From the NCBI GenBank assembly GCA_003142815.1, contig PLNP01000040.1, forward strand, positions 3,672 through 67,671: 64,000 nt of DNA, given 5' to 3'. The translations under genes and the position numbers were made by a program. Below, piece after piece: positions 11,647-29,399 of this stretch (the stretch's first letter is position 1; every line of letters starts with the position of its first letter). This DNA is from Rhodanobacteraceae bacterium (GTDB lineage: Bacteria > Pseudomonadota > Gammaproteobacteria > Xanthomonadales > Rhodanobacteraceae). The notes below the pieces were generated by a model that was given only the letters and a program-made list of their open reading frames with translations, was not told where the DNA came from and did no database searches.

Positions 11647-11671
11647 GGCGGGTGAGGGTGGTTGCCGCGCG

Positions 11672-11970
11672 CTAACCCGCCAGCGGCTCGAAGCGTGCGA
11701 TCAAGTGCCGCAGCGCGGGCGGCTCGTCGGTGATCCGGTAGCCGCGCAGCTCGCCAACGCGGGCCGCGACCTCGGCCCAGATCTCGATGACGTAGTCGAT
11801 GTGGCTCTGGGTATAGGTACGGCGGGGAATGGCGAAGCGGACGAGGTCGAGGGCGGCGGCTGTTTCGCTGCCGTCGGGGTGGCGGCCGAACATGACGGTG
11901 CGACCTCGCAGCTGCGGACGCCGCCAGCCTCGTAGAGCGCGATGGCGAGCGCCTGACCGGGGTACTGGCG
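11672..11970 (-). pseudogene. tnaA: Tryptophanase / tyrosine phenol-lyase C-terminal fragment with a 1-bp deletion
   Basis: YPGQALAIALYEAGGVRSCEV in one frame continues as TVMFGRH...LVRFAIPRRTYTQSHIDYV in another; GTC GC ACC near 11900 where GTC GGC ACC is expected; no 5' part present. Confidence 0.75.
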
Positions 11971-12109
11971 GAACGTGGCGTAACCGGTGAATTGCACGCA
12001 TCATCTTCTGATTCTGACTCCTTTTGATCCGAACCGCCTCGCCTCGCGAGGCGCCATGTAAACAGAACACCCCGCATGGAGCAGTCAGCCCACCTATCTG
12101 GAAGGCTTG

Positions 12110-13875: not shown

Positions 13876-14019
13876 GCGGTCAGAGGTCGATCTCAAACTT
13901 GTCGGACGACGGCAGGCGCCGGTCCATCTCCAGCATCATTTCGCCAAGTTGGCGGAGTTGATTGCGTTGGAGGCCGACAAACGCTTGCGCGTCGCCATAC
14001 GCCGCTGCCAAGCCCACGG

Positions 14020-14350
14020 CCATCCGTCGGCCAATCTCGTCGAGATGCTGGACGCGGCCTCGCTGCGTCGCTTCGACTTCAAGGTGAAGTTCGACTATCT
14101 GGCCCGTGACCAGCGCCGCGCGATGCTGCTCCGGATTGCCACGGACGCAACCGACGACGACCACCAGCGCGCCATCGCCCAGATCGACCGTCTCAGTTAC
14201 CTGACGCCGGGTGATTTTGCGAACGCGCTGCGACAACTGCGCGTCATCGGCGAGGCGCCGACCGCGATGCGCTTGGTGGAATTGCTAGCCAGCGAGGTGG
14301 CCATCAAGCCCGAGGCACGCCGGCGATCCATCGGGTTTGTCGCCGCATGA
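14020..14350 (+). pseudogene. AAA ATPase C-terminal fragment
   Basis: NL.EMLDAASLRRFDFKVKFDYL, LTPGDFA and terminal IGF motif; no Walker A/B upstream. Confidence 0.7.
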
Positions 14351-14462
14351 GCACGCCATTCGTAAACGACTGGCCACGCCGACTGCGAAATACACGACAG
14401 CGCAGGTGGTATTGCCATCATCCGATCTGGTCAGAGCGGTGGCCGCCTGTGCTCGCGATTAT

Positions 14463-15428
14463 TCACGAGTCTTTGACTGCGATCCGCAAACCCTGGTGCC
14501 GCCGCCGCCGCCAAGCCAGCACTCCGAGTCCAAGCAGCAATACAGTAGCCAGCAGGCCCACCATGGAACTGTCGATGGCCCACACTGCGGACACACTGCT
14601 GGTCTGGTGACTGTAGAGGTCGATCCATTCGTGCAGTGCGACGGTTAGCGCGAGGCACACCGAGATGCCGGTAATCAGCGTATTGAGGCGCAGCGTACGA
14701 TCGCGGTCTGCAATCGCCCAGTCGTATAGACGCAGCATGAGAAGGCTCTGCAAAGTATCCATCGACGCCATGCCTGCTGCGAACAGCAGCGGTAGCATCA
14801 TCACGGCCAACAACGGAATTCTGCCATCATGCGCGGCGACCACCGAGATCGCCAGCAGCGCGACTTCGCTGGCGGTATCGAAGCTTAGCCCGAACAACAT
14901 GCCGAGCGGGAACATCTTCCAGCTGTGGTCGGTGTTGCGCGCAATTCGACCTAGCCCGAAGCCGTGACGGTGCTCCTTGCCTGAATGCCGATCACGCAGC
15001 ATGGCTGCAAAGAAGCGCAGGTTGGCCAATCCGATCAGGGTCAGGAAGACGGCCGACACCAGGCTGCCGAACAGCGATCCCCAGTCCGACAACTGCGGCA
15101 GCAATACGCCAATGTGGTGAGCTGCGACGACCGCAACGGCGGTCAGCAGCAGGACGACGGTGGAATGCCCGAGTGAAAAGAACAGCCCGACGCCGGCTGG
15201 GCGTTGCCCCTCGGCACGCAGGCGGCGTGTCACATTATCAATCGCGGCGATATGGTCGGCGTCGAAAGCATGCCGCACGCCGAGCAGATAGGCGATCATC
15301 CCAACACTCAATCCGACCGCGCCGAAGCCACCGAGCCATAGGGCACCACCACCCGCCAGCAGGTTGAGCAGCAACAAGGCTGCCATGACTGTTAGCACGC
15401 GCTCGCGCAGCGATGAGTTCGCGCGCAT
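14463..15428 (-). CDS. hoxN: High-affinity nickel/cobalt permease (NiCoT, HoxN/NixA family)
   Basis: RHAFDADHIAAID, FFSLGHS and FGLSFDTASE signature motifs. Confidence 0.92.
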   Translation of the reverse strand: MRANSSLRERVLTVMAALLLLNLLAGGGALWLGGFGAVGLSVGMIAYLLGVRHAFDADHIAAIDNVTRRLRAEGQRPAGVGLFFSLGHSTVVLLLTAVAVVAAHHIGVLLPQLSDWGSLFGSLVSAVFLTLIGLANLRFFAAMLRDRHSGKEHRHGFGLGRIARNTDHSWKMFPLGMLFGLSFDTASEVALLAISVVAAHDGRIPLLAVMMLPLLFAAGMASMDTLQSLLMLRLYDWAIADRDRTLRLNTLITGISVCLALTVALHEWIDLYSHQTSSVSAVWAIDSSMVGLLATVLLLGLGVLAWRRRRHQGLRIAVKDS

Positions 15429-15431
15429 GGC

Positions 15432-17174
15432 CTATTGCACTTTGACGCGGATCAGTTCCTCACCGTCCGGATCGACGACGTGGACCGCACAGGCGAGGCA
15501 GGGATCGAAGCTGTGGATCGTGCGCAGTATCTCGAGCGGTTGCTTGGGATCATGCAGGCTCTGCCCTTTCAACGCGGCCTCGTAGGGACCCTCGTTGCCG
15601 GCCGCATCGCGAGGTCCCGCGTTCCAGGTGCTCGGCACGACCGCTTGGTAGTTAGAGATCCGCTCGTCGTCGATCACGATCCAGTGCGCCAGTGCGCCAC
15701 GCGGCGCCTCAGTGAAACCGACACCCTGGGCATGCCGTGGCCAGCTCGACGGTTCCCACAGCCTCTCGTTGAACGTGCGCACATCGCCGGCTTTGATGTT
15801 CGCCATCAGCTTTTCGTACCACGATGGCATTGCGTCAGCGAAAATCTTGCACTCGAGCGTGCGCGCCGCCGTGCGGCCCATGGTCGAGTACATCGCTTCC
15901 AGCGGCAGGTCGAGTTGGGCCAGTGCCTTGTTCGCCAAATCCTTGGTTGGCTCATGGCCGCTGGCGTAAAGCATCAGCACCCGCGCCAGCGGCCCGACCT
16001 CCATCGCGTTGCCCTTCCAGCGCGGCGATTTGAGCCAGGAATAGCTGGCTGAGGTGTCCAGGTTTTCGTATGGTGGCTTGGGTCCCGAATAGGCCAGCCG
16101 CGTTTCGCCGCGATAGGGGTGCAGACCTTGCACCTTGCCGCCGTCGTAGTCGTACCACGAGTGTGCCACGAATTCCTGGATATCCTCTTCTTTGGTGAGA
16201 TCGACTTCGTAAATCCGACTCAGATCCCGGCCGAGAATCGCACCACGCGGAATCATGTACGTCTTCAAATCCGCCGATCCGTCGGCCGGGAAATCGCCGT
16301 AGGTTAGGAAGTTGCCGGTGCCCTCCCCACAGCCCTTCTTGAACCAGTCCTTATAGAACGAGGCGATTGCCAGCGTGTCCGGCACATAAACCTGATCAAC
16401 GAACATGCGCATCTGTTCGATAATTTCTGCGACCTTCTGTAGACCCACCGCGTTGACCGCAGTGCTGCCCGTGCCCTCGCCCGAGTGCACGCTGATGGCA
16501 GCCGGGCTGCCGCCGACGAGGAAATTCGGATGCGGATTCTTGCCGCCGAAGATGGTATGCAACTCGGCCACCTGACGCTGCCAGGCCAACGCATCCAGGT
16601 AATGCGCCACCGCCATCAGATTCGCCTCCGGTGGCAACGCGTAGCCGGGGTGTCCCCAGTAGGCGTTTGCGAAAATCCCGAGTTGCCCGGATTCGACCAG
16701 CTTCTTGACGCGGTTCTGCACATCGGCGAAGTAACCGGGCGAGGAGCGCGCGTAGCTCGATATGGATTGGGCCAGCGTAGATGTCGCCTTGGGATCGGCC
16801 TTCAGCGCCGACACCACGTCCACCCAGTCGAGCGCATGCAGATGATAAAAGTGCATGACGTGGTCGTGCACGAATTGCGCAGCGATCATCAGGTTGCGGA
16901 TCAGTTGGGCATTGACCGGGATCTCGTACTTCAGCGCATCCTCGACCGCGCGCACGGAGGCGATGCCGTGAACCAGCGTGCAGACACCGCAGATGCGTTG
17001 CGCGAAGGCCCAAGCGTCGCGAGGGTCACGACCGCGCAGAATGATCTCGATTCCGCGCACCATGGTGCCGGAGCTCGATGCCCGCGTGATGACGTTGCCG
17101 TCGGTTTCCGCTTCGATCCGCAAGTGCCCTTCGATCCGCGTAACCGGATCGACGACGATGGTCTGGGTGCTCAT
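15432..17174 (-). CDS. hynL: [NiFe]-hydrogenase large subunit (group 1, Hyn/Isp-type)
   Basis: VDPVTRIEGH, L1 QRICGVC, L2 DPCLACAVH plus a cleavable C-terminal tail. Confidence 0.95.
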   Translation of the reverse strand: MSTQTIVVDPVTRIEGHLRIEAETDGNVITRASSSGTMVRGIEIILRGRDPRDAWAFAQRICGVCTLVHGIASVRAVEDALKYEIPVNAQLIRNLMIAAQFVHDHVMHFYHLHALDWVDVVSALKADPKATSTLAQSISSYARSSPGYFADVQNRVKKLVESGQLGIFANAYWGHPGYALPPEANLMAVAHYLDALAWQRQVAELHTIFGGKNPHPNFLVGGSPAAISVHSGEGTGSTAVNAVGLQKVAEIIEQMRMFVDQVYVPDTLAIASFYKDWFKKGCGEGTGNFLTYGDFPADGSADLKTYMIPRGAILGRDLSRIYEVDLTKEEDIQEFVAHSWYDYDGGKVQGLHPYRGETRLAYSGPKPPYENLDTSASYSWLKSPRWKGNAMEVGPLARVLMLYASGHEPTKDLANKALAQLDLPLEAMYSTMGRTAARTLECKIFADAMPSWYEKLMANIKAGDVRTFNERLWEPSSWPRHAQGVGFTEAPRGALAHWIVIDDERISNYQAVVPSTWNAGPRDAAGNEGPYEAALKGQSLHDPKQPLEILRTIHSFDPCLACAVHVVDPDGEELIRVKVQ

Positions 17175-18496
17175 GCTGCGTTCCCCGCAGTACCAGCCAG
17201 ATTATCGGCGACCAGTTCCAGCAGGCTGCGCGGCGTTTTCTCCCAATTGAAGTGGCTCCGGGCGTCGTCGAAAGTGCGCCGGCAGTCCGAACAACTGGTG
17301 ATGAAGGTCGACGCACCGGTGTCGTCGACCTCGCGCAGTTTGTTCTCCATCGCCCGATAGCGCAGCGGCGCGGCGCGCTGGATATCCACTACCCCGCCGC
17401 CGCCGCCACAGCAGAAACTGAACGCGCCGTGATTCTTCATCTCGTGCAACTCGACACCCATCGCCTTCATCAGCGTTCGCGGCGCGTTGGTGACCCCGCC
17501 CTTGCGCACGAGCTGGCAGGGATCATGGAACGTGGTTGCGCCGGTTTCGGCCGTTCGCAGCGTCAACTTGCCCAGTTGTAACTGTTCGGCGAGGAATTCG
17601 GTGACGTGGCGCACCTTGAACGGTAGCGGCTTGCCATACAGGTCCGCCGCTTCCCAGCGCAGCGCCGTGTAGGCGTGACCGCACTCGGGCACGATCAGGA
17701 GCTTGGCCTTGCAGGCCAGGGCCTCGTCGATCAAGCGCAGGCTGATCTGGCGCTGCCATTCCTTGCCGCCGGCATAGTAGCCGTAGTTCTCCGCCACCAG
17801 GCCGTCGCTGCGAAACGTGCAGGAAACGCCCAGATGCTGCATGACTCGCGCCAGCGCCGCGACCGCTTTCGGATAGTGTTCGATGTCGGTGCGCGGCACG
17901 GTCAGCATCACCTCCACGTCGGACTTGTCCAGTGGGATCTCCACACCGAACTCTCGTCCAATGGCAAGCAGCTTGTCGCGATACGGCTCGGCGCTGTCTT
18001 CCGGCTGCCCGGTCCGTTTCTGATTGGCTGCCTTTTCGTAAAGCTCCGTCGGCGCCAAGCCGGCCTCGAACATGGCGTGCCGTGCTTGTTCGATCAGCGC
18101 AGAGACATCAATGCCCATCGGACAGATCAAGCTGCAGCGGCCGCACATGTTGCAGCTATCGAACAGCAGGTACTGCCAGTGCTCGAGTTCGTCCGCGGTC
18201 ACCTTCTTCTTCAGTCCAAGCCACCTGAACACCGGCGCGAACGCGCTAGATTCTCGCTTGTAGGCTTGTTTGAATGGTTCCACTTTCCAGATCGGCGTGT
18301 ACTGCGGATCTTCGGTGGCGATGTAGAAATGACAGGCGTCGGCACAGATGCCGCAGTGGATGCAGGACTCCATGCGGAACGCGCTGAGCGCGCCGATCTC
18401 AAGCGCGAAGCCGCGCATTGCGCCGGCGACGCGCGCCTCGGGACTCCTGGCTTCCTCCAGCGCGAGGTTGGCACTGAGCGTTGCCGTAATGCTCAT
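17171..18496 (-). CDS. isp2: Isp2: HdrD/DsrK-like Fe-S protein with CCG domains
   Basis: CIHCGICADAC, CNMCGRCSLICP, PECGH, FHDPC, FCCGGGGG and TSCSDC; lies between small and large subunit genes. Confidence 0.88.
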   Translation of the reverse strand: MSITATLSANLALEEARSPEARVAGAMRGFALEIGALSAFRMESCIHCGICADACHFYIATEDPQYTPIWKVEPFKQAYKRESSAFAPVFRWLGLKKKVTADELEHWQYLLFDSCNMCGRCSLICPMGIDVSALIEQARHAMFEAGLAPTELYEKAANQKRTGQPEDSAEPYRDKLLAIGREFGVEIPLDKSDVEVMLTVPRTDIEHYPKAVAALARVMQHLGVSCTFRSDGLVAENYGYYAGGKEWQRQISLRLIDEALACKAKLLIVPECGHAYTALRWEAADLYGKPLPFKVRHVTEFLAEQLQLGKLTLRTAETGATTFHDPCQLVRKGGVTNAPRTLMKAMGVELHEMKNHGAFSFCCGGGGGVVDIQRAAPLRYRAMENKLREVDDTGASTFITSCSDCRRTFDDARSHFNWEKTPRSLLELVADNLAGTAGNAA

Positions 18497-19152
18497 GAGG
18501 CCGCTCCTTTGCGAGACAGCAGAGTTCCGTTGATCGCGCGCGACGGGAAAATGTAGAACGCGTGCATCAGCTTGCCGAACGGGAACCAGACCAGCAGCGC
18601 ATCGAAGCTCAGGATGTGCAATCCGAGAATGGTCTGATAGGGTCCACCGATGTGGGCCGTGGCCATCAACCCGGTGACGATGACCAGCGTGGTGATGAAC
18701 CAGCTGAAGTAGTCGTCGAAATTGGACAACATCCGCAGCACCCTGTGCGTCACCCGACGGAACAGCACCGCCAGCAGCAGGGTGAACGTCAGCACCGAGA
18801 AGATGGTGATCACGCTGTTCGGAAGTGCCGGCCAGGTGACGCCGAACAGACTGCCGAAAAAGGCGATGTGCGGTGCGAATGCCAATATGACGATGAACAG
18901 GCCGATGTGATAGCCGTAACCCAGCGCTTCGCCGGCACCGGTTCGAACGGTGAACTCGGAGTGTGGCCATGAGCGTGATCCGGTTGCGATCACGCCACCG
19001 ATGATCGCCTTGACCAGCGAGTTGCGTGGTTCGTTGAAATTGCGCCGGATTCGCAACAGTGCGAAGCCGACGATACGCCAGACGACGCCCAGGCAAAAAA
19101 CCGCGAGCGCAACTTCGAGTGCGGGTCCACGTGCGAAACTCACAAGGTCCAT
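18493..19152 (-). CDS. isp1: Isp1: NarI/DsrM-like di-heme b membrane subunit
   Basis: About 5 TM helices with His pairs (YHIG...PHI and LHIL...KLMH). Confidence 0.85.
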   Translation of the reverse strand: MDLVSFARGPALEVALAVFCLGVVWRIVGFALLRIRRNFNEPRNSLVKAIIGGVIATGSRSWPHSEFTVRTGAGEALGYGYHIGLFIVILAFAPHIAFFGSLFGVTWPALPNSVITIFSVLTFTLLLAVLFRRVTHRVLRMLSNFDDYFSWFITTLVIVTGLMATAHIGGPYQTILGLHILSFDALLVWFPFGKLMHAFYIFPSRAINGTLLSRKGAAS

Positions 19153-19155
19153 GGG

Positions 19156-20274
19156 TCAGCTCTCCTTGGCCTCGTTGTTGGTGGTCGATTTCTCAATGTG
19201 GCGCTGACGCAGTCGGCTGAGTCCGGCGGATGCGACACCAAGGGCGGCGCCGACTGCGGCCGCGCCGCCGACAACTTTCAATACGTCGCCCGGCGAAACC
19301 TCACCCGCCTTGCCCCATCGCGGCGCCGACAGTGCCGAGTAGAAACTGCCCTTGTCCCAGAAATTCGGTTCCGAACAGCCGAGACAGGGGTGCCCGGATT
19401 CGATCGGGAAGCTGGTGCCGCCGTTCCATTTAGTGGTTGCGCAGGCGTTGTATGTGGTAGGGCCCTTGCAGCCGAGTTCAAACAGGCACCATCCGTTGCG
19501 CGCGCCTTCGTCGTCGAAGGATTTGGCGAATTTGCCCTGGTCGTAGAACGGCCGGCGGTAGCAGCGGTCGTGAATGGTATTGCCGAAAAACACTTTCGGC
19601 CGGCGGTACTCGTCGAGATCAGGTACCTTGCCGGTCGAAATGAATTGCAGCAGCGTGCCGGTGATCACCTCGGGAATCGGCGGGCACCCGGAGACGTTGA
19701 CAATGGGTTTGTCGCTCACGATGTCCGACACTGGCCAAGCCTGCGTCGGATTGGGATCGGCAAATGGAACTCCACCGAACGATGAGCAAGTACCGACGCA
19801 GACGATCGCCGCCGCGCCCTTGGCCGCTTCGCGCAAGATGTCGACCGCGCTCTTCCCGCCTAGCGCGCAGTAGGCACCGTTAGCGCCGGTCGGCACGGAA
19901 CCATCGATCACCAGCACATACTTGCCATAGTTGTCCTTCATCGCCTTGTCGCGGGCCATTTCGGCCTGGGCGCCGGCGGCGGCCATCAGGGTATCGTCGT
20001 AATCCAGCGAGATGACGTCGAAGATCAGGTTCTCGATCGAGGGCGAGAACGAGCGGATCAGCGACTCCAGACAGCCAGTGCATTCCTGGAACGACAGATA
20101 GATCACCGAAGGTCGCAGAGCCGCGCGCAGTTGTTCGGCCATCGCCCGCCCTGCCAGAGGCGGTAGGGCCAGTGCCGAGGCCATCGCGGTGCAGTATTTG
20201 ATGAAGGTCCGCCGGCTGACGCCATGCCGCTCCAGCATCTCGCCGATGGTAGGCTGGTCGTGATAGTGGGCCAT
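19156..20274 (-). CDS. hynS: [NiFe]-hydrogenase small subunit with Tat signal and C-terminal anchor
   Basis: SRRTFIKYC Tat motif, ECTGC, GCPP, HDRCYRR, GCKGP and HPCLGCSE; hydrophobic C-terminus. Confidence 0.95.
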   Translation of the reverse strand: MAHYHDQPTIGEMLERHGVSRRTFIKYCTAMASALALPPLAGRAMAEQLRAALRPSVIYLSFQECTGCLESLIRSFSPSIENLIFDVISLDYDDTLMAAAGAQAEMARDKAMKDNYGKYVLVIDGSVPTGANGAYCALGGKSAVDILREAAKGAAAIVCVGTCSSFGGVPFADPNPTQAWPVSDIVSDKPIVNVSGCPPIPEVITGTLLQFISTGKVPDLDEYRRPKVFFGNTIHDRCYRRPFYDQGKFAKSFDDEGARNGWCLFELGCKGPTTYNACATTKWNGGTSFPIESGHPCLGCSEPNFWDKGSFYSALSAPRWGKAGEVSPGDVLKVVGGAAAVGAALGVASAGLSRLRQRHIEKSTTNNEAKES

Positions 20275-20284
20275 CTGTGGGTCC

Positions 20285-20728
20285 TCAGTTCCCGGGCTGC
20301 TGCGCCGCACCGGCGGCACCGGCCCGCAGCTGTTGCGCACCGCGCCGCAGCTGGTCTGGTTCCACGGGAAGAATCGCCGGCACTTGGGCGATTTCGATGA
20401 ACCCGGCGATCAACTCGCCGCCGCGATCGCGGTATTCGCTCCACCACACGCCCTGGATCCCGGTCTCGTTGATCGTTGACTCGCCGTCCCCCTTCAACGT
20501 GATGGTGACCTCACCGGGCCCCAATGCCTTCAGCAATTGCTCGCGATCGCCCGGGCTCATTGGCAAGCTGCGCAAATCGATGGCGCCTGGCTCCCCACCA
20601 TCGGCCAGCCGGTCGAGTTGCGTGGCAATCTCGATCAGAATCGCCGTCACGCCGGCGCCGATGGTGCCAGTGGACGCCGCCGGGGTCCGCGACACGATCC
20701 GAATCGGAATTTCGCCGAGCCGGCTCAT
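20285..20728 (-). CDS. Hydrogenase expression/formation protein (HupH/HyaF C-terminal-type)
   Basis: IDLRSLPM, LGPGEV and ETGIQGVWW motifs. Confidence 0.8.
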   Translation of the reverse strand: MSRLGEIPIRIVSRTPAASTGTIGAGVTAILIEIATQLDRLADGGEPGAIDLRSLPMSPGDREQLLKALGPGEVTITLKGDGESTINETGIQGVWWSEYRDRGGELIAGFIEIAQVPAILPVEPDQLRRGAQQLRAGAAGAAQQPGN

Positions 20729-21255
20729 GGTACGCACCAATTCCGCAGCACGGCACCGGCTCGCGCAGCGGCTGCGTCGAACGCACGTGCGACGGGGGGC
20801 GAAAGGGCTTCAGTCCAATCGATCGTGCATGGTTGAACGCATAACAAGGCGCGGCGCCTCGGTATACAGTCAAGCAGCCTCGCCATGTCGAGCAGATCGC
20901 ACAACCCGACTTCATGAACACTGCGGCGCCGGGAACTGGCGAGGAAGCGATCCATCGCCTCATTTTCGAACAAGCGCACGGTGCCCGGCGCCTCGCCCAG
21001 ATCCGCGGCGTCGGTCACGAGCATGGCGTCTGTGGTTTCGATAAGCCCAAGGAGGCTGAAACTGAGCGTGCCGCCATCGACGAAGTTGGCCGCCCCGAAC
21101 GCAGGGTCGGTTCGCAGCCGTTCGACCAATCGGATGCCGACGCCATCGTCGCCAAGCAGGACATTGCCCATTCCCAGCATGAGGACGTTCGCTGGCGCGG
21201 ACTCGCGTGCTTCCGCCACGGCATCCACGGCGTAATCTTTCCGATGACCTCGCAT
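20725..21255 (-). CDS. hupD: Hydrogenase maturation endopeptidase (HyaD/HybD/HupD family); start uncertain
   Basis: LGMGNVLLGDDGVG, VDGGT, DAAD and SVHEVGL. Confidence 0.88.
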   Translation of the reverse strand: MRGHRKDYAVDAVAEARESAPANVLMLGMGNVLLGDDGVGIRLVERLRTDPAFGAANFVDGGTLSFSLLGLIETTDAMLVTDAADLGEAPGTVRLFENEAMDRFLASSRRRSVHEVGLCDLLDMARLLDCIPRRRALLCVQPCTIDWTEALSPPVARAFDAAAARAGAVLRNWCVP

Positions 21256-21326
21256 GACTTCCACCGCCACGATGCCACTCCGCGTCGCCTTCGGCGGGAG
21301 TGAACCATATCCGGACATCAATCGTA

Positions 21327-21340
21327 TTGACCTCGATCAA
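21327..21340. promoter_or_regulatory. FNR-type binding site 1
   Basis: TTGAC-CTCG-ATCAA versus consensus TTGAT-N4-ATCAA, in the divergent hyn/hyp intergenic region. Confidence 0.7.
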
Positions 21341-21357
21341 TCTTTGCTTAGCGAAAA

Positions 21358-21371
21358 TTGACCGGCGTCAA
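21358..21371. promoter_or_regulatory. FNR-type binding site 2
   Basis: TTGAC-CGGC-GTCAA, symmetric half-sites, 31 bp from site 1. Confidence 0.65.
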
Positions 21372-21504
21372 TGTGAGGCCGAGCGTGCTCCGTATAATGA
21401 ACTTGCGTACATCGCGCGATCAGCGTCTGTCCCAGGATGATGCGTCGTTGGATCGCGCTCACTCACCAGGACAGTCTGGATCAAGGCTTGAGCGAAGGAC
21501 GGAT

Positions 21505-21879
21505 ATGCACGAATTGTCCATTTGCCAAGCACTTCTGACGCAGGTCGAGGACATCGCGCGCGCGCACGCTGCCGACGGCGTGAAACGGATCATCGTGGCG
21601 GTGGGCCCGTTATCGGGCGTCGAGCCCTCGCTGCTAGCAGTGGCCTTTCAGCTCGCGCGCGCCGGTAGTTGCGCCGCGCAGGCCGAATTGACGTGCGAAC
21701 TAGCCCCGGTGACGGTGAGATGCACGGAGTGCGGCGCAGAGTCTGCGTGCGCGGCGAACTGCCTACTGTGCGCCGAGTGCGGTGGCTACCGTACTCAGGT
21801 GATCAGCGGCGACGAGCTGTGCCTGCTGCGCGTTGAATTGTCGTCGGCCGACGAAAGCGTCCGGCGTACTGCCGCCTGA
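21505..21879 (+). CDS. hypA: Hydrogenase nickel metallochaperone HypA
   Basis: MHELSI start, two CxxC motifs and SGDEL. Confidence 0.93.
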   Translation: MHELSICQALLTQVEDIARAHAADGVKRIIVAVGPLSGVEPSLLAVAFQLARAGSCAAQAELTCELAPVTVRCTECGAESACAANCLLCAECGGYRTQVISGDELCLLRVELSSADESVRRTAA

Positions 21880-21897
21880 ATCGAGAACGGATCGGCT

Positions 21898-22713
21898 ATG
21901 TGCGAAACATGCGGCTGTACTATCACTGCGGGAAACGTCCATCTGACCCGCGACCAGCATGGGCACGACGGCCCCGTCATCGAAGTGCTGCAGGATCTGC
22001 TGGCCGCGAATGACCGTACGGCAGAGCACAATCGCTCCCACTTCAACGAACACGGCGTGTTCGCGATCAATCTGATGTCCTCGCCCGGCGCCGGCAAGAC
22101 CGCATTGCTGGAAGCCACGATCGACGCCCTCGGCGACGAATACCGCATTGCGGTGATCGAGGGCGACCTCGAAACGGAGAACGATGCGGCTCGCATCCGC
22201 GCGCGCGGCGTGCGTGCGGTGCAGATTACCACCGGCAGTGCCTGTCACCTGGACGCACACTTGGTGCACCAAGCCCTGCACGAACTGCCGCTGCACGGTC
22301 TCGACCTCTTGTTCATCGAAAACGTCGGTAATCTAGTGTGCCCGGCCAGCTTCGATCTCGGCCAACACCGCAATGTCGTGCTGCTGTCAGTCACTGAGGG
22401 CGACGACAAACCGGCGAAATATCCGGTCATGTTCCGCGCCGCCGACTTGGTGGTGTTGAGCAAGGCGGATTTGCTCGACGTGCTCGACGATTTCGACCCG
22501 CTGCGCGCCGAAGCGGCGCTGCGTGCGCTTGGGCGCGACACACCCGTGATCCGCGCCGCAGCGCGGCGCACGCCGGCCCTGCAGCCGTGGCTGGACTGGC
22601 TGCGCCGCGAGCTCGCGCAACACCGTAAAGCCCACAATCAGTTCGCAGTGCCAGCTACGGCGTTGACCGGAGCTGCGCTGCTGCGTCCGGCTCGCTCGAT
22701 GGTCGGGGATTGA
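21898..22713 (+). CDS. hypB: Hydrogenase nickel incorporation GTPase HypB
   Basis: MCETCGC, SSPGAGKT, ACHLDA, ENVGNLVCPASFDLG and EGDDKPAKYP. Confidence 0.95.
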   Translation: MCETCGCTITAGNVHLTRDQHGHDGPVIEVLQDLLAANDRTAEHNRSHFNEHGVFAINLMSSPGAGKTALLEATIDALGDEYRIAVIEGDLETENDAARIRARGVRAVQITTGSACHLDAHLVHQALHELPLHGLDLLFIENVGNLVCPASFDLGQHRNVVLLSVTEGDDKPAKYPVMFRAADLVVLSKADLLDVLDDFDPLRAEAALRALGRDTPVIRAAARRTPALQPWLDWLRRELAQHRKAHNQFAVPATALTGAALLRPARSMVGD

Positions 22714-22716
22714 GCG

Positions 22717-22974
22717 ATGTGCCTGGCGATTCCGGTCCGTGTCACGGTACTGCTCGACGACGAGCAGGCGGAGATCGAGGTCGGCGGCGTTCGTAACAGA
22801 ATCTCGTTGGCATTGCTCGACGGCGTCGCGGTCGGCGACTTTGTCATTGTTCATGCCGGCTTCGCCATCGCGCGTCTCGATGTTGCGGAAGCCGAAAAGA
22901 CTCTTGCGCTGTTCGACGAGATTGCGGCGCATATCGGCGAGCCGGCCCATGCGTTACATCCGTGGTTTTCGTAA
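22717..22974 (+). CDS. hypC: HypC
   Basis: MCLAIP start and VIVHAGFAI. Confidence 0.95.
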   Translation: MCLAIPVRVTVLLDDEQAEIEVGGVRNRISLALLDGVAVGDFVIVHAGFAIARLDVAEAEKTLALFDEIAAHIGEPAHALHPWFS

Positions 22975-24085
22975 CGGCGCTGCGGCGAGCGCGCTGGCTC
23001 GGCTGATCGCCGCGGCGGTCACGCCCGGCCGCGAGTACCACCTGATGGAATTCTGCGGCGGCCACACGCATGCGATCTTCCGCTATGGCGTGCAGGATCT
23101 TCTGCCGGAGAACGTCAAGCTGGTGCATGGCCCGGGCTGCCCGGTATGTGTACTAGCGATGCCGCGCCTCAACGGCGCGATCGAGCTGGCGCAGCGGCCG
23201 CAGGTGACGTTGGTCAGCTACGGCGACATGCTGCGCGTCCCCGCCTCGCGCCGGCGCAGCCTGCTCAAGGCGCGCGCCGAGGGGGCCGACGTGCGCATGG
23301 TCTATTCCGCGGCCGAGTCCCTGAATATCGCCGCTGCCCATCCGGATCGCCAAGTCGTGTTCTTCGCGATCGGCTTCGAGACCACGACACCGGCGACGGC
23401 GTACGTGATCGTTGAAGCGCAGCGCCGCGGGCTGCGCAACTTCAGCGTCTACTGCAACCACGTCCTGACACCCTCGGCCATTCAGAGCATCGTCGATGCA
23501 CCGGAGGTGCGCGAGTTCGGCCGCGTCCGCGTCGACGGCTTCATCGGGCCCTCGCACGTCAGCACCGTGATCGGCAGCCGTCCCTACGAATATTTCGCCG
23601 AAGAATACCAGCGGCCGGTGGTGATCGCGGGCTTCGAGCCTCTCGACGTCCTGCAGGCGATCCACATGCTCGTGCAGCAGCTCAACGAGGGCCGCGCCTG
23701 CGTCGAAAACCAATTCACTCGCGGCGTCACGCGCGACGGCAACCGCAAGGCGCAGGCGTTGGTGGCCGACGTGTTCGAACTGCGCCCGAGCTTCGAGTGG
23801 CGCGGCCTCGGCGAACTGCCTTATAGCGGATTACGCATCAAATCGGTCTACGCGGAGTTCGACGCCGAACGCCGCTTCGAGATAGCCATCCACCCAGTGC
23901 CCGAGAACAAGGCCTGCCAGTGTCCGGCGATAATCCGCGGCGTCAAGAAACCGACCGACTGCCCAATATTCGGAAACGTCTGCACACCGCGCAACCCGAT
24001 CGGCTCGTGCATGGTCTCTGCGGAAGGCGCATGTGCCGCGTACTACAAGTACCGCCGCGGCAATGTTTCGGCGATGGCTAGCTGA
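22949..24085 (+). CDS. hypD: HypD
   Basis: MEFCGGHTH, GPGCPVC, FFAIGFETT and PIGSCMVSAEGAC. Confidence 0.95.
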   Translation: MRYIRGFRNGAAASALARLIAAAVTPGREYHLMEFCGGHTHAIFRYGVQDLLPENVKLVHGPGCPVCVLAMPRLNGAIELAQRPQVTLVSYGDMLRVPASRRRSLLKARAEGADVRMVYSAAESLNIAAAHPDRQVVFFAIGFETTTPATAYVIVEAQRRGLRNFSVYCNHVLTPSAIQSIVDAPEVREFGRVRVDGFIGPSHVSTVIGSRPYEYFAEEYQRPVVIAGFEPLDVLQAIHMLVQQLNEGRACVENQFTRGVTRDGNRKAQALVADVFELRPSFEWRGLGELPYSGLRIKSVYAEFDAERRFEIAIHPVPENKACQCPAIIRGVKKPTDCPIFGNVCTPRNPIGSCMVSAEGACAAYYKYRRGNVSAMAS

Positions 24086-25803
24086 TGCGCATCCTGCTGC
24101 TGATGCATAGCTTCAACAGCCTGTCGCAGCGCCTCTATGTCGAGCTGCAGCGCGACGGTCACGAACTGTCGGTGGAATTCGACATCCACGACGACGTCAC
24201 TCGCGAAGCGGTAGAGCTGTTCCGACCGGATCTAGTGCTGGCACCGTTCCTGAAGCACGCGATTCCCGCCTCGGTGTGGCAGCGCCTTCCCTGCCTGATC
24301 GTGCATCCGGGACCGCCCGGCGACCGCGGGCCGGCGGCGCTGGATTGGGCGATCTTGCACGGCGCCGATAGTTGGGGTGTCACCGTGTTGCAGGCGGAAG
24401 CCGCGATGGACGCCGGTCCGGTGTGGGCCAGCGAAGAATTTGCAATGCGGCCTGTGCGCAAGAGCAGTCTGTATCGAAACGAGGTCACCGAGGCCGCGGT
24501 GAGCGCGGTACGCCGCGCCATCGCCCGCCGCGAAGCCGGCGAGCGGCCCGCGGCGCCAGGCGGCGCCACACACGGCTGGCAACCACCGCTGCGGCAGGCG
24601 CAGCGCGCGATCGACTGGCAGCGGGACGATAGCACCACCGTGCTGCGCAAGCTGCATGCGGCCGACGGGTTTCCGGGCGTCGAGGACATGCTGTTCGAGC
24701 GGCGCTTCCGGCTATTTGACGGACACCGCGAGGAACACCTCGCCGGTCGTCCCGGCACGTTGATTGCGCGCTGTCATGGCGCGATCTGTCGCGCCACGCG
24801 CGACGGCGCCGTGTGGATCGGCCAGTTGCAGCCGGTCGAGGACCGACAATGCGGTTTCAAGCGCCCGGCCACGCTTGCGCTCGGTTCGCTCGCGGAAAAT
24901 CTGCCAATCAGCGAAGACAATCCGGCCGCCACGCGCAGCGACACGAGCCTGCGCGAGATCCGCTACAAAGAGCACGGCAACATCGGTTACCTACACTTCG
25001 ATTTTTACAACGGCGCGATGAGCACTGCGCAGTGCGAACGCCTGCGCGCCGCCTATCTGCAGGCGCGACGGCGGCCGACACGCGTCATCGTGCTCATGGG
25101 CGGAGGCGACTTCTGGAGCAACGGCATGCACCTGCACTGCATCGAAGCTGCCGAAAGCCCGGCCGACGCGTCCTGGGATAACATCAACGCTATCGACGAC
25201 TTGGCGCGGGACATCCTGACCACCGACACGCACCTGACGATCGCTGCCCTGCAGGGCAACGCCGCGGCTGGCGGCGTATTTCTGGCGCTGGCTGCTGACC
25301 TCGTCCTGGCGCGTAGCGGCGTGGTGCTCAATCCGCACTACCGCAACATGGGCAACCTCTACGGGTCCGAATATTGGACCTATGTGCTGCCGCGACGCAC
25401 TGGTGCGGAGCGTGCGCGGATGCTGATGGCCGGCCGCCTGCCGATCGGCGCGCCCGAAGCGCAAGCCCTCGGACTGATTGACGGATATGCCGGCCCGGAC
25501 ATGGCCGCGTTCCATGCACTGGTCGCGTCGCGCGCGGCGGCTCTCGCCAGCAACGAAACCCACGCGCCAGCGCTGGCCGACAAGCGCGCGCGACACGCGC
25601 GCGACGAGCACGCGCACCCACTGGCGGACTATCGTGCCGTCGAGCTGGAGCATATGCGTCTCAATTTCTACGGCTTTGATCCGAGCTACCACGTCGCCCG
25701 CTACCGCTTCGTGCACCGCACGCCGCAGGCTTGGACGCCGCTGTATCTTGCGCGCCATCGCCAACTCGGCCGCACGACCCGCAGTGCGACCACATGCGCA
25801 TGA
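24085..25803 (+). CDS. hypX: HypX/HoxX (formyltransferase plus enoyl-CoA hydratase domains; CO ligand synthesis)
   Basis: MRILLLMHSFNSLSQR, HPGPPGDRG, FDFYNGAMST, WSNGMHL and PHYRNMGNLYGSEYWTY. Confidence 0.93.
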   Translation: MRILLLMHSFNSLSQRLYVELQRDGHELSVEFDIHDDVTREAVELFRPDLVLAPFLKHAIPASVWQRLPCLIVHPGPPGDRGPAALDWAILHGADSWGVTVLQAEAAMDAGPVWASEEFAMRPVRKSSLYRNEVTEAAVSAVRRAIARREAGERPAAPGGATHGWQPPLRQAQRAIDWQRDDSTTVLRKLHAADGFPGVEDMLFERRFRLFDGHREEHLAGRPGTLIARCHGAICRATRDGAVWIGQLQPVEDRQCGFKRPATLALGSLAENLPISEDNPAATRSDTSLREIRYKEHGNIGYLHFDFYNGAMSTAQCERLRAAYLQARRRPTRVIVLMGGGDFWSNGMHLHCIEAAESPADASWDNINAIDDLARDILTTDTHLTIAALQGNAAAGGVFLALAADLVLARSGVVLNPHYRNMGNLYGSEYWTYVLPRRTGAERARMLMAGRLPIGAPEAQALGLIDGYAGPDMAAFHALVASRAAALASNETHAPALADKRARHARDEHAHPLADYRAVELEHMRLNFYGFDPSYHVARYRFVHRTPQAWTPLYLARHRQLGRTTRSATTCA

Positions 25804-28115
25804 AGGCGAGCGTCGCGCGGCGTCCAGCGACTGCGGCTGAGCCTTCGACTGCGCCGTTCCCGGCGTGGCGATGGCGTATCGTTGGACGCGTGCAGGGGGT
25901 GGGGTTCCGGCCGTTCGTCTACCGACTGGCGCATAGTCTCGGTCTGCATGGCTGGGTGCGCAACAGCGGCGGCATGGTTGAAATTCACGCGCAGGGACCG
26001 GCGCCGCTGCTGCAGACGTTCGGCCGGGCGCTGCTCGATCAGGCGCCGCCAGCCTCGCGTCCGCAGCTACTCGACGAGCACGCCGCGCCGCAGGAAGCCG
26101 CGACGGAGTTCCGCATCCTCGTCAGCACTGGCGGCGCCCAGGCGCAGATTCACGTGCCTCCCGACCTGTTTACCTGTGACGACTGCCTCGCCGAGTTGCA
26201 CGACCCCGCCGCGCGCCGCTACCGATACCCTTTCATCAACTGCACCCAATGTGGGCCGCGTTACACGCTGATCCAGGCGCTGCCCTACGATCGGCCGAAC
26301 ACGACCATGGCCGGCTTCACGCTGTGTCCCGCCTGCGCCGCCGAGTACGCGGACCCCATGGATCGGCGCTTCCATGCCCAGCCTTTGGCTTGCCCTGCGT
26401 GTGGCCCGCGCCTGCGCTGGCGCGCCGAGGCAGGCGCGGCTATCGAGGCTGGCGGAAACGAAGCGGCGCTTGACGCCGCGGTAGCCGCGCTGCGCGCCGG
26501 GCGCATTGTCGCGGTGCGCGGCATCGGCGGTTACCACCTGCTGTGCGATGCTAGCCGCGAAGACGTCGTCACACGTCTGCGCTCGCGCAAGCGGCGTCCG
26601 GCGAAACCGCTGGCGCTGATGGTGCCCTGGTGCGGCGACGACGGATTGGATCAGGCGCGCCGCTTGGTGCAGCTATCACCCCTGCAAGCCGCGGCGCTGA
26701 CCGATCCGGTGCGGCCGATCGTGCTGGCGCCGCGCCGTGACACGGCGCCGCTCGCCATCGCGGTCGCGCCAGGCCTGCGCGAGGTGGGACTGATGCTCCC
26801 CTACAGTCCGCTGCACCATATATTGCTCGACGCGTTCGGCAGCGCAGTGGTCGCCACTTCCGGCAATCTCAGCGGCGAGCCGGTGCTGACCGAGCCGGTC
26901 GAGGCAGAGGCGCGGCTCGTTGATATCGCCGATGGTTTTCTGCATCACGACCGGCCGATCGCGCGGCCGGCGGACGACTCGGTGTTGCGCATCATCGCCG
27001 GTGCCATTCGGCCGTTGCGCATTGGGCGCGGTGCTGCCCCACTGGAAATGAAGCTGCCGGCGCCGATCGAAGTGCCGACGCTCGCGGTGGGCGCATTCCT
27101 CAAGAACACAGTGGCGCTGGCCTGGGGGGAACGCGCGGTGACTTCGCCCCACATCGGCGACCTCTCGAGTCCGCGCGGACGCGCGGTATTCGCCCAAGTC
27201 GCCGAAGACCTGCAGCAGCTGTACGGCGTGCGCGCACAGCGCATCGTGCACGACGCGCATCCGGACTTCCCAAACACGCGCTGGGCGCGCGCATCCAGGC
27301 TGCCTACGTTGGCGGTGTGGCACCATCACGCGCACGCGGCGGCCCTGGCCGGCGAATATCCCGACACCACCCCGCTACTTTGCTTCACTTGGGACGGCGT
27401 CGGCCTCGGGCCGGATGGCACCCTCTGGGGCGGCGAAGCGCTGCTCGGCCGGCCGGGCGCTTGGGACCATGTGGCGAGTTTCCAGCCATTCCGGTTACCC
27501 GGCGGCGAACGCGCCGCGCACCAGCCCTGGCGTACCGCGGTGGCATTGTGCTGGGAATCCGGTATCGACTGGCCCGCTGCCGATCTCGCCGATCCGCTGT
27601 TGCGCCAAGCCTTCGACCGCAGAGTAAATACGCCGCAGACGAGTTCAGTCGGCCGCCTGTTTGACGCAGCGGCGGCGCTGCTGGATGTTTGCCGGCAGGC
27701 GAGCTATGAAGGCGAGGCGCCGATGCGCCTGGAAGCGCTGAGCGAAGGAGTTTCGGCGCCGCCAGTGGCTCTGCCACTAACGCGCGATGCCGCCGGTATC
27801 TGGCGCAGCAGCTGGGTGCCGTTGCTGCCGCTTCTGCTCGACGCACAATTTTCGCCGGCGGTGCGGGCCGCAAGCTTCCACGCCAGCCTGGCGCAGGCGC
27901 TATGCGGGCAGGCGCTTGCCGTGCGACATGACTGCGGTGTGACGCGCATCGGCTTGACCGGCGGCGTGTTCCAGAATCGCGTGCTGAGCGAGCAGGTTTG
28001 CGGGCGGCTATGCGCTGAGGGGTTCGAGGTGCTGATTCCGCAGCAGTTGCCGGTCAACGACGCGGCAATCAGCTATGGCCAACTGGTTGAGGCGGCGGCC
28101 TCGCCGGCAGGCTGA
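25800..28115 (+). CDS. hypF: Carbamoyltransferase HypF
   Basis: GRVQGVGFRPFVY, Zn-finger CxxC pairs, HHHAH and TSSVGRLFDA. Confidence 0.95.
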   Translation: MKASVARRPATAAEPSTAPFPAWRWRIVGRVQGVGFRPFVYRLAHSLGLHGWVRNSGGMVEIHAQGPAPLLQTFGRALLDQAPPASRPQLLDEHAAPQEAATEFRILVSTGGAQAQIHVPPDLFTCDDCLAELHDPAARRYRYPFINCTQCGPRYTLIQALPYDRPNTTMAGFTLCPACAAEYADPMDRRFHAQPLACPACGPRLRWRAEAGAAIEAGGNEAALDAAVAALRAGRIVAVRGIGGYHLLCDASREDVVTRLRSRKRRPAKPLALMVPWCGDDGLDQARRLVQLSPLQAAALTDPVRPIVLAPRRDTAPLAIAVAPGLREVGLMLPYSPLHHILLDAFGSAVVATSGNLSGEPVLTEPVEAEARLVDIADGFLHHDRPIARPADDSVLRIIAGAIRPLRIGRGAAPLEMKLPAPIEVPTLAVGAFLKNTVALAWGERAVTSPHIGDLSSPRGRAVFAQVAEDLQQLYGVRAQRIVHDAHPDFPNTRWARASRLPTLAVWHHHAHAAALAGEYPDTTPLLCFTWDGVGLGPDGTLWGGEALLGRPGAWDHVASFQPFRLPGGERAAHQPWRTAVALCWESGIDWPAADLADPLLRQAFDRRVNTPQTSSVGRLFDAAAALLDVCRQASYEGEAPMRLEALSEGVSAPPVALPLTRDAAGIWRSSWVPLLPLLLDAQFSPAVRAASFHASLAQALCGQALAVRHDCGVTRIGLTGGVFQNRVLSEQVCGRLCAEGFEVLIPQQLPVNDAAISYGQLVEAAASPAG

Positions 28116-28116
28116 C

Positions 28117-29136
28117 ATGGCGCACGCTAACAGCTTCCGCGACACGCGCATCGCTCTTGCGCACGGCAACGGCGGCCGCATGATGCGCGAGCTGATCGAG
28201 GAACTGTTCGCTCCTGCCCTGGCCAATCCGCAGCTCGACACCGGGGCCGACGCTGTGCCACTGCCCATGCCGGCCGATCACGACCTGATGGTGACCACAG
28301 ACGGCTTCACTGTGAAGCCGTTGGAGTTTCCGGGGGGCAATATCGGCTCGCTTGCTGTCCACGGCACCGTAAACGATCTTGCTGTCTGCGGCGCGAAGCC
28401 GCATTACCTGACGCTCAACGTCTTCCTCGAAGAAGGACTGGAAATCGCGCTGCTGCGCCGCGTGATCGACGCACTGGCGGCCGCCGCGCGCGACTGCAGT
28501 GTCGCGGTGGTCGCCGGCGATACCAAGGTGGTGGGTCGCGGCGACTGCGACGGCATCTATCTCGCCACCACTGGCGTCGGCTTCCGGCCACGCGGAACCC
28601 GCTATGCGCTGGATCGCATCCGTGCTGGCGACCGCATCTTGGTGAGTGGACCCGTCGGCGACCACGGAACCGCAGTGCTCCTGGCACGCGAGGAGTTCGG
28701 CCTACGGGGTGATCTGCGCTCGGATAGCGCCAGCGTATTGCCGCTGACGCAGGCGTTGGCCACGATCGACGGCTTGCATTTCATGCGCGATCCGACACGG
28801 GGTGGATTGGCTACCGTGACTCACGAGATCGCCCGGGCCACCGGCCTTGGCCTGCGGCTCGATGAGGCGCAGATTCCGGTCAACGAGTCAGTCCAGTCGG
28901 TCTGCGAGCTGCTCGGCTTTGATCCGCTGTACCTGGCCTGCGAAGGACGCGTCGTGGCCGTGGTCGCCGCCGAAGACGCGGACGCCGCGCTGGATGTGTT
29001 GCGGCCCTTGGCACCACAGTCGGCGCTGATCGGCGAAGTGACCGCCGGAGCGGCACAGGTGATTCTCGAAACCACGTTCGGCGGCCAGCGCGTGCTCGAC
29101 GAACTCGACGACGATCCGCTGCCGCGCATTTGCTGA
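28117..29136 (+). CDS. hypE: HypE
   Basis: HGNGG, TTDGF, HGTVNDLA, GDTKVV, MRDPTRGG and terminal PRIC. Confidence 0.95.
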   Translation: MAHANSFRDTRIALAHGNGGRMMRELIEELFAPALANPQLDTGADAVPLPMPADHDLMVTTDGFTVKPLEFPGGNIGSLAVHGTVNDLAVCGAKPHYLTLNVFLEEGLEIALLRRVIDALAAAARDCSVAVVAGDTKVVGRGDCDGIYLATTGVGFRPRGTRYALDRIRAGDRILVSGPVGDHGTAVLLAREEFGLRGDLRSDSASVLPLTQALATIDGLHFMRDPTRGGLATVTHEIARATGLGLRLDEAQIPVNESVQSVCELLGFDPLYLACEGRVVAVVAAEDADAALDVLRPLAPQSALIGEVTAGAAQVILETTFGGQRVLDELDDDPLPRIC

Positions 29137-29399
29137 AGCGGTGCACTCTCCCTTGGCGGGGATAATGTTTGAACCACTACGGAATATCCGACAACAAAAT
29201 TTTTTTGTTCTTCTCGAATGGGCGTCGGTACTTTAATGCACCGCGGTGCGCTGATCGCACCATTTTTTCGCCAATGCGCATATGTGCGGCCCCGAACCGA
29301 CTTAAAAACCCGGCGGTATAGTTTGATCTTTACGTAGCCTTGGAGGCACTATCTAACCCCCAGCGCCGACAACCCGATCAGCCAATAGGAGACACGCCC

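Follow-up and report, generated by a model that had tools for sequence, protein, structure and literature searches.

A complete [NiFe]-hydrogenase cassette of 14 genes fills positions 14463–29136 of the stretch of contig PLNP01000040.1 analysed here, which has a length of 64 kb (positions 1–64000) and is called the window below. Reading the genes and their surroundings, we propose with a probability of about 0.7 that the cassette encodes a self-contained respiratory uptake hydrogenase of group 1e (Isp-type) facing the periplasm, and that its host is an uncultured peat and soil member of the Rhodanobacteraceae resembling Dokdonella and Rudaea. This host would have gained the genes as a nicO-to-hypE module from a pool shared with Steroidobacteraceae-like soil Gammaproteobacteria.

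Genes were called from six-frame open reading frames (ORFs) and their translations, followed by Pfam and NCBIfam scans. By these calls the cassette extends from the stop codon of nicO to that of hypE, with the minus-strand set nicO-hynL-isp2-isp1-hynS-hupH-hupD divergent from the plus-strand set hypA-B-C-D-X-F-E (Table 1). All 14 genes were intact and of full length with their signature or catalytic motifs kept, and neither a frameshift nor an internal stop was seen in any of them. The four genes hynS-isp1-isp2-hynL are contiguous (20274–15432, minus strand), separated by 4-nt overlaps or 3-nt gaps. On at least four metagenome contigs, gene callers working independently arrived at the same 13 proteins, those that fit inside the loci. 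An earlier note on this DNA, made from the letters and their ORFs, had described this gene order with the same strands, intactness and coordinates, and its description proved correct to the base. The start of hupD is uncertain, at 21255 (ATG) or at 21318–21321, of which gene callers choose 21318. Scans for terminator and promoter consensus sequences stayed at or below the shuffle expectation, except for a hairpin with a T-run at 29245–29261, after hypE. Two contigs of 251 nt in a soil metatranscriptome, about 99% identical, fall on isp1 and hynS and are weak evidence that the cassette is transcribed.

Both subunits point to group 1e. Compared with all PDB sequences, HynL matched best the large subunit of Allochromatium vinosum (3MYR_B, 916 bits, 70% identity), and HynS matched best the small subunit of the same enzyme (3MYR_A, 397 bits, 61% identity). 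The best group 1d structure for HynL, Salmonella Hyd-5 (4C3O_A), reached 734 bits and 57% identity; E. coli Hyd-1, Hydrogenovibrio and the membrane-bound hydrogenase (MBH) of Cupriavidus reached 625–667 bits, groups 1b and 1c about 510–560 bits and group 1a <300 bits. A neighbour-joining tree of 83 large subunits, distance-based and rooted on a 1d sequence with few outgroups, placed HynL within the clade of A. vinosum, Thiothrix, Thiobacillus, Sulfuriferula, Gallionella and Woeseiaceae. The order hynS-isp1-isp2-hynL was present in 65 of the 68 loci that reach far enough upstream among the 80 best loci of GTDB. Because every testable feature agreed, namely the 3MYR matches, the tree and the gene order, the sequences support the assignment to group 1e that the earlier note had made.

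HynL carries the motifs RICGVCTLVH and DPCLACAVH, the latter followed by a C-terminal extension of 15 residues, and also the His-rich HDHVMHFYHLH; its C-terminal motifs align with the mature C-terminus of 3MYR_B. The proximal-cluster positions of HynS, ECTGC and GTCSSFGG, align with ECTGC and GTCAAFGG of 3MYR_A, and glycine stands at both positions that bear the extra cysteines in O2-tolerant enzymes, as in A. vinosum. The predicted proximal cluster is of the standard four-cysteine type, unlike the six-cysteine type of group 1d. HynS further contains the twin-arginine translocation (Tat) motif SRRTFIK and a C-terminal hydrophobic helix at residues 331–352.

The prototype of group 1e is the HynSL-Isp1-Isp2 enzyme (HydSL; 3MYR) of A. 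vinosum and Thiocapsa roseopersicina. The cassette shares with it the gene order, the Ni-Fe ligands, the His-rich motif, the four-cysteine proximal positions, a b-type Isp1 and a heterodisulfide-reductase-like Isp2. Unlike the prototype, it belongs to a non-phototrophic soil or peat host, has no sulfur genes nearby, and includes hypX, nicO and FNR-type promoter boxes. The group 1d MBHs (Cupriavidus necator MBH, E. coli Hyd-1, Salmonella Hyd-5) resemble the predicted enzyme in being periplasmic, Tat-exported and quinone-linked uptake enzymes, and C. necator also uses HypX (PMC12134894). They differ from it in the large subunit, in the six-cysteine cluster (CTCC and GCV, compared with CTGC and GGV in the window) and in the anchor, which is the cytochrome b HoxZ/HyaC instead of Isp1/Isp2. 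None of the accessory genes of the hoxL, hoxV, hoxO, hoxQ or hoxR type was present in the window cluster.

Isp1 has about five hydrophobic helices, and its His 82, 95, 179 and 197 are invariant in 69 homologues, which is what two bis-His haems b would require. Its TmcC and HmcE scores lie under the equivalog cut-offs, as expected of a sister family. The best NCBIfam score of Isp2 was that of DsrK (201 bits), followed by TmcB (179) and HmcF (175), all under cut-off; since 201 bits falls under the 400-bit cut-off of DsrK, Isp2 is not DsrK itself. Compared with the PDB, Isp2 gave weak matches to HdrB, and the hydrophobicity of the protein revealed no transmembrane helix. Isp2 has two CxxCxxCxxxC ferredoxin motifs and a complete C-terminal CCG motif made up of C327, CC362–363 and CxxC402–405 (PF02754, 48 bits). 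Across 74 homologues 13 cysteines are invariant, C45/48/51/55, C115/118/121/125, C327, CC362–363 and C402/405, and C272 is conserved in 95%. Among the loci L007–L086 divergence is much quicker in Isp1 and Isp2 than in HynL, which stays at 72–77%; relative to the window the two Isp proteins fall into two similarity classes, at least 50% or 35–40% identical. The Thiothrix loci, neighbours of A. vinosum in the HynL tree, belong to those with only 35–40% identity in Isp1 and Isp2. Some isp2 genes of the Gallionella type have about 120 additional codons.

HypX matched Aquifex aeolicus HypX (6J0P) over its full length (599 bits, residues 1–561), and Pfam resolved its two-domain layout of a formyltransferase-like N domain and a crotonase-like C domain. 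During growth with oxygen, HypX makes the CO ligand from N10-formyl-tetrahydrofolate (PMC12134894). Among the 80 best GTDB loci hypX lies inside the cluster in nine, limited to the window's own subclade and a Rhodanobacter metagenome-assembled genome (MAG). NicO has about 7–8 hydrophobic segments. Apart from the window, its gene stands next to hynL only in L013 (54%) and in the two closest clusters, L095 (77%) and L094 (68%). Literature searches returned no paper linking HypX with group 1e.

The divergent intergenic region between hupD and hypA has a length of 184 bp and contains two predicted FNR/FixK-type boxes. The pattern TTGAY-N4-RTCAA had three matches in the 64 kb, with about 0.1 expected, and two of the three are in this region. 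From the centre of box 2 it is 31 bp downstream to the centre of a TATAAT at 21393–21398, which faces hypA; for reference, FNR-type promoters carry a TTGAT-N4-ATCAA-like palindrome centred near -41.5. Boxes occur at the equivalent position in 11 other loci of the wider HynL clade (L013, L014, L017, L050, L057, L058, L073, L075, L083, L094 and L095), and none was found there in five Steroidobacteraceae-type loci (L007–L010, L030). A gene of the Crp/FNR family 2.5 kb beyond hypE encodes an FNR/Dnr-type ETVSR helix and no N-terminal Cys cluster, and its product would be a candidate regulator for the two boxes. The boxes suggest that the cassette is induced when oxygen is limiting or when conditions are denitrifying. 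The third match, TTGACGCCAATCAA at 59396–59409, falls in the overlap between trpC and the 5' end of an ORF for a HAD hydrolase and is unrelated to the hydrogenase.

The earlier note had placed the DNA in a probable Rhodanobacteraceae host, and this guess is reasonable because of the relatives of TrpE and a Clp-type regulator. The nearest named relatives of TrpE are from Dokdonella sp. (92, 88 and 87% identity), a 'Rhodanobacteraceae bacterium' (90%), Lysobacterales (90%) and Rudaea (86%), and the regulator encoded at 57407–58213 has a CRP/Clp-type recognition helix. The public runs in which the sequence occurs are metagenomes of peat and soil. In the MAG with the 92% identical TrpE, deposited as 'Dokdonella sp.' (GCA_039926425.1, L097), genes for a puhA-like PRCH protein, PuhC, PucC, BchM, BchL and BchH stand beside trpE (locus 13675–21476), a hint that this lineage of the Rhodanobacteraceae includes an anoxygenic phototroph.

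Isp-type clusters are documented in purple sulfur bacteria, Aquifex, Acidithiobacillus, Thiobacillus and Sideroxydans, and the earlier note considered the type not typical of the host lineage. This part of the note is weak. The same cluster type is present in one Rhodanobacter MAG, one Lysobacterales MAG and three Wenzhouxiangellaceae MAGs, and it is very common in Gammaproteobacteria of peat and soil. In the protein database, over 120 clusters formed at the 90% identity level are at least 85% identical to the window HynL, and the exact protein is encoded on at least 24 contigs. We regard the cassette as an ordinary member of a widespread hydrogenase family, whose rarity had been overrated. 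In literature searches we found no paper linking Rhodanobacteraceae or Dokdonella with a group 1e hydrogenase.

The closest clusters are those of bog, palsa and soil Gammaproteobacteria and Steroidobacteraceae MAGs (L007–L010, L030) together with the metagenome contigs L094 and L095. They have the same divergent arrangement of hupD-hupH-hynS-isp1-isp2-hynL and hypABCDXF, with HynL 85–91% identical. In all of them the flanking genes are entirely different from those of the window, and L007–L010 and L030 also differ in lacking nicO and the FNR-type boxes. The nearest named relatives of HynL are Steroidobacteraceae MAGs (88%) and Stordalen-type Gammaproteobacteria of bog and palsa (85–88%), and the HynL proteins of the Rhodanobacter and Lysobacterales MAGs are only 73–75% identical.

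Horizontal acquisition of the hydrogenase tract, in the broad sense, is supported because a junction in a truncated tnaA gene, a drop in G+C content, the discordant relatives of HynL and TrpE, the occurrence of the module in three contexts and the scars of insertion sequences (IS) were all found. The left flank of the window is common to the loci L089, L092 and L093, of which L092 is 87–89% identical at the nucleotide level; the scan of metagenomes with XdhC yielded only three loci, among them L089, which proved decisive in mapping the left junction. The shared block leads from a molybdo-flavoenzyme through an HGD-D/BcrAD pair, a ferredoxin, a 2-oxoacid:ferredoxin oxidoreductase, a thioesterase and a MocA-like protein to XdhC, and also holds, before XdhC, a 433-residue protein of unknown function, a DUF2249 protein and a hemerythrin. 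In all three loci xdhC is followed by an intact tryptophanase gene, tnaA, of 456 codons. The window keeps only its last ~105 codons, and the nucleotide homology to the three loci ends at 11967–11978, inside tnaA. No hydrogenase was found upstream of tnaA in these relatives within 10 kb (L092), 5.6 kb (L093) and ~0.5 kb (L089). The G+C content is 0.689 at 1–11978, 0.615 at 11979–14462, 0.645 in the hydrogenase module, 0.607 at 29137–35121 and 0.591 at 35142–53293, and rises again to 0.644 among the core genes on the far side of the tRNA.

The module from nicO to hypF was found in three different genomic contexts, that of the window and those of L094 and L095. L095 (HynL 91%) is 84–85% identical to the window in nucleotides over 14472–27082 and has VirB8 and MeaB as neighbours; L094 (HynL 89%) contains the same module including nicO, with UbiA, dodecin and HPF as neighbours. 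No synteny was shared between the window flanks and the closest GTDB loci. In L095 the gene for VirB8, a type IV secretion protein, directly follows nicO (locus 13279–13986), a hint that the module may have travelled on a plasmid or a conjugative element. Traces of IS in the window are an IS4-type fragment (34065–34370) and a DDE_Tnp_1_2 fragment (35484–35639). In four peat metagenomes the segment 11983–12286 at the junction came in several sequence variants and at a 2–3.4-fold higher depth, and it is probably a multi-copy repeat. In strain L003 a stretch of 582 bp (12441–13022) is replaced by 784 bp encoding a C-terminal fragment of an IS5/IS1182-type transposase. Horizontal gain of hydrogenase clusters has been described for peatland Sideroxydans, where integrase and transposase genes flank them (PMC9925335), and the group 1e hydrogenase of the wetland methanotroph Methylovirgula thiovorans HY1 is encoded on a megaplasmid, a mobile replicon (PMC9371685).

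The discordance between HynL and TrpE could also arise if a Steroidobacteraceae hydrogenase contig had been misjoined to Rhodanobacteraceae core genes in assembly or binning, and Logan contigs do break at 11.98–12.29 kb. We consider this extremely improbable. The same junctions were present in independent assemblies from different samples and pipelines (L001, L002/L087, L003, L006), and a single 116-kb contig of JGI is collinear with window positions 1–64000 at constant offset. The depth was equal on either side of every break in five metagenomes, and flank and cluster occurred in the same runs. A chimeric assembly was rejected because the flat depth and the multiple assemblies agree.

The runs with the left flank and those with the cluster were the same set, and the depth was flat over the whole window in the five peat metagenomes, which ranged from about 5 to 70x (roughly 15-fold). 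On these two grounds the module is single-copy, chromosomal and fixed in the population, and a recent acquisition is not supported.

Fixation in every run holding the species would also be expected if the cluster had been inherited vertically, as an ancestral possession of a lineage spanning Lysobacterales and Steroidobacterales, with losses elsewhere, and had its local context scrambled by IS near a tRNA hotspot. Such a history would fit the wider clade of the tree, in which the window stands with Rhodanobacter SulCav, Lysobacterales SP244 and Wenzhouxiangellaceae, and the FNR-type boxes, which are common to loci of the order Lysobacterales and not to the closest Steroidobacteraceae-type loci. 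It is quite unlikely in view of the identities of HynL, 85–88% to the bog and Steroidobacteraceae MAGs and 73–75% to the Rhodanobacter and Lysobacterales MAGs. The tnaA stump also argues against it, given the intact gene of L089, L092 and L093 and their upstream sequence, free of the cluster over the 10 kb or less covered, as do the drop in G+C content at the junction and the location of the same module beside VirB8 in L095.

For the acquired uptake hydrogenase we propose the following mechanism. HynS would take HynL across the membrane via the Tat pathway and anchor the complex by its C-terminal helix. H2 would be split at the Ni-Fe site, and the electrons would reach the di-haem b protein Isp1 by way of three standard Fe-S clusters and enter the quinone pool from there. 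Isp2 would sit on the cytoplasmic face, with its CCG-type cluster serving a putative thiol/disulfide or quinone-linked partner. Nickel would be imported by NicO and the cofactor built by HypA–F; the CO ligand would come from HypX when oxygen is present, so that assembly may be possible with some O2. HupD would trim HynL, and HupD and HupH together would finish the maturation. On the most economical reading, the oxidation of H2 would feed the quinone pool under low-oxygen or denitrifying conditions, in a facultative heterotroph that may scavenge fermentative H2 at the oxic-anoxic interface of peat.

Several points weigh against this proposal. As regards function, the four-cysteine proximal cluster speaks against robust, fully aerobic turnover, so that sustained activity in air is not expected. 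HydDB calls group 1e O2-sensitive, bidirectional and tied to sulfur respiration (quoted in PMC7735108), and Methylovirgula HY1 has a 1e enzyme, yet in culture it consumed no H2 (PMC9371685). As regards the origin, the earlier note had spoken of a horizontally acquired island. The acquisition stands on the tnaA junction, the drop in G+C content, the discordant phylogeny and the three contexts, but the tract is not a classical island: no integrase is present in the 64-kb window and no att repeat bounds the hydrogenase tract. The junction mapped is the left one; towards the right, the synteny downstream of trpE is not conserved in the TrpE relatives L096 and L097. No island-free strain was found among the public runs with the flank. 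HynL evolves slowly, hence its 88% identity to Steroidobacteraceae is by itself no proof of transfer, and the wider HynL clade of the tree also holds MAGs of the order Lysobacterales. The taxon labels of the MAGs are those given by their depositors.

The functional points lead to another explanation, in which the enzyme is a sulfur-linked or H2-evolving redox valve, as for Thiocapsa Hyn, reducing S0 with H2 or releasing H2 from excess reductant, and not an energy-conserving uptake enzyme passing electrons to O2 or nitrate. Members of the host family are known as heterotrophs that respire aerobically or denitrify, and the 64 kb contain no sulfur-metabolism gene, both of which make this explanation unlikely. 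The earlier note had reported the lack of dsr and sox genes in the window, and this was borne out, with sqr, psr and hdr likewise missing from the 64 kb; its suggestion that the CCG site of Isp2 may serve a different acceptor is a conjecture. The integral hypX argues for assembly with O2 present. For a redox valve speak the fully conserved CCG site of Isp2, the 2-oxoacid:ferredoxin oxidoreductase and other low-potential enzymes of the left flank, the group 1e literature (PMC10892978) in addition to the HydDB description, and the trace H2 that Methylovirgula HY1 built up. HY1 is like the window host a wetland bacterium, with a HynL 73% identical, but it is a sulfur oxidiser and carries the genes on a plasmid and not on the chromosome. 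Against a redox valve stands Acidithiobacillus ferrooxidans, an O2-respiring bacterium in which hynS, isp2 and hynL were induced in aerobic growth on H2 (PMC7735108). Its group 1e Hyn resembles the window cassette in joining an Isp-type cluster with maturation genes; it differs in its host, an acidophilic chemolithoautotroph of iron and sulfur, and in being minor beside a dominant group 2a enzyme.

More tentatively, and as a possibility that we hold to be well short of probable, nicO-hyn-isp-hypABCDXFE could be a portable, oxygen-compatible plug-in for H2 respiration that circulates among aerobic and denitrifying heterotrophic Gammaproteobacteria of peat and soil, from Steroidobacteraceae-like ones to Rhodanobacteraceae, and that was seen once next to the conjugation gene for VirB8. 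In this sublineage the Isp-type enzyme with the CCG site of Isp2 would be uncoupled from sulfur metabolism and under FNR/Dnr-type control. When peat decomposes, H2 is a central intermediate, and its consumers compete with methanogens. If the plug-in were real, H2 at the oxic-anoxic interface of peatlands would also be consumed by a route so far unrecognised, that of group 1e. As a rule, enzymes of this group are taken as markers of sulfur-cycling lithotrophs. A complete cassette in a common lineage of peat heterotrophs, with hypX, a nickel importer and low-oxygen-type boxes, and with well over 100 related environmental protein clusters, suggests that Isp-type enzymes have a role in H2 turnover by facultative heterotrophs, and for annotation the label of group 1e should not be equated automatically with 'sulfur respiration'. 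For enzymology little is added, the enzyme looking like a standard Isp-type hydrogenase. The additions are modest: hypX and nicO as built-in parts of the cluster, FNR-type boxes at a conserved position, and a junction mapped to tnaA beside a tRNA-Gln hotspot.

Table 1. Hydrogenase cassette, promoter boxes and associated features, in window positions.
Feature	Position	Strand	Evidence
3' remnant of tryptophanase (beta-eliminating lyase, tnaA) gene	11651..11978	-	intact 456-aa gene in L089, L092, L093
nicO/hoxN-type nickel(/cobalt) permease	14463..15428	-	PF03824 183 bits; TIGR00802 235 bits, under curated cut-off
hynL, [NiFe] hydrogenase large subunit	15432..17174	-	PF00374 766 bits
isp2, cytoplasmic HdrD/DsrK-like Fe-S protein with CCG domain	17171..18496	-	Fer4_8 and CCG
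isp1, membrane di-haem b-type anchor (NarI/DsrM/HmcE-like), predicted	18493..19152	-	TmcC 93 bits, HmcE 82 bits, both under cut-off
hynS, small subunit, Tat signal and C-terminal membrane anchor	19156..20274	-	TIGR00391 433 bits
hupH-like maturation protein, HupH_C domain only	20285..20728	-	PF04809 102 bits
hupD/hynD, large-subunit C-terminal endopeptidase	20725..21255, or start up to 21321	-	PF01750; TIGR00072 119 bits
FNR/FixK-type box 1 (predicted), TTGACCTCGATCAA	21327-21340		TTGAY-N4-RTCAA match, hupD-hypA intergenic
FNR/FixK-type box 2 (predicted), TTGACCGGCGTCAA	21358-21371		TTGAY-N4-RTCAA match, hupD-hypA intergenic
hypA	21505..21879	+	PF01155 96 bits; N-terminal MHE, two CxxC pairs
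hypB	21898..22713	+	PF02492; N-terminal CxxCGC, P-loop GAGKT
hypC	22717..22974	+	PF01455 85 bits; N-terminal MC
hypD	22946..24085	+	PF01924 505 bits
hypX	24085..25803	+	Formyl_trans_N/C and ECH_1
hypF	about 25794..28115	+	Acylphosphatase, 2 x zf-HYPF, YrdC, Kae1-like domains
hypE	28075..29136	+	AIRS and AIRS_C domains; C-terminal end PRIC
Crp/FNR-family regulator	31693..32508	-	cNMP_binding, HTH_Crp_2, Crp domains; ETVSR recognition helix

The only RNA family found by Rfam in the window was a tRNA-Gln at 53288–53361 (minus strand). Local alignment revealed an exact direct repeat of 20 nt, GGGGACTAGGGCTCGAACCT, at 35122–35141 and 53294–53313, which is identical to the 3' part of the tRNA-Gln. 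The pair brackets the neighbouring segment of 18.2 kb (G+C content 0.591) and not the hydrogenase, and because of this bracketing we concluded that the tRNA-Gln served as an integration site. The hydrogenase tract would have adjoined the tRNA-Gln before the insertion of the 18.2 kb. No att repeat that starts from the extreme 3' terminus of the tRNA-Gln was found. Encoded in the 18.2-kb segment are a DUF6351 protein resembling tannase, a TonB-dependent receptor, a TPR-repeat Ser/Thr kinase, a sigma factor of the ECF type and an HTH-cupin regulator; the segment contains no integrase, no empty-site variant of it was seen, and it looks like a decayed integrative element. A candidate empty-site variant at 35141, a loose contig end continuing as tRNA-Gln, was rejected, as reads mapped to 34600–54500 gave no such joint; the contig in question is the real tRNA locus, which matches the 20-nt repeat as a second place.

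The left flank (1–11634) encodes a molybdoenzyme of the xanthine dehydrogenase family (MoCoBD_2, FAD_binding_5), HGD-D with a BcrAD/BadFG activator, a 4HBT thioesterase and a MocA-like nucleotidyltransferase. This block suggests an oxygen-sensitive, low-potential pathway of the host, possibly for aromatic or 2-hydroxyacyl-CoA compounds. Within the 5' end of the TonB-dependent receptor gene a tandem duplication of 78 nt (96% identical) was found at 41356–41511, where Logan contigs break in all runs. Just upstream of an AdoMet-decarboxylase-like gene, the region 56400–57050 had about 2.5-fold depth and joints going back 55–63 in several peat metagenomes, and is probably another short multi-copy repeat.

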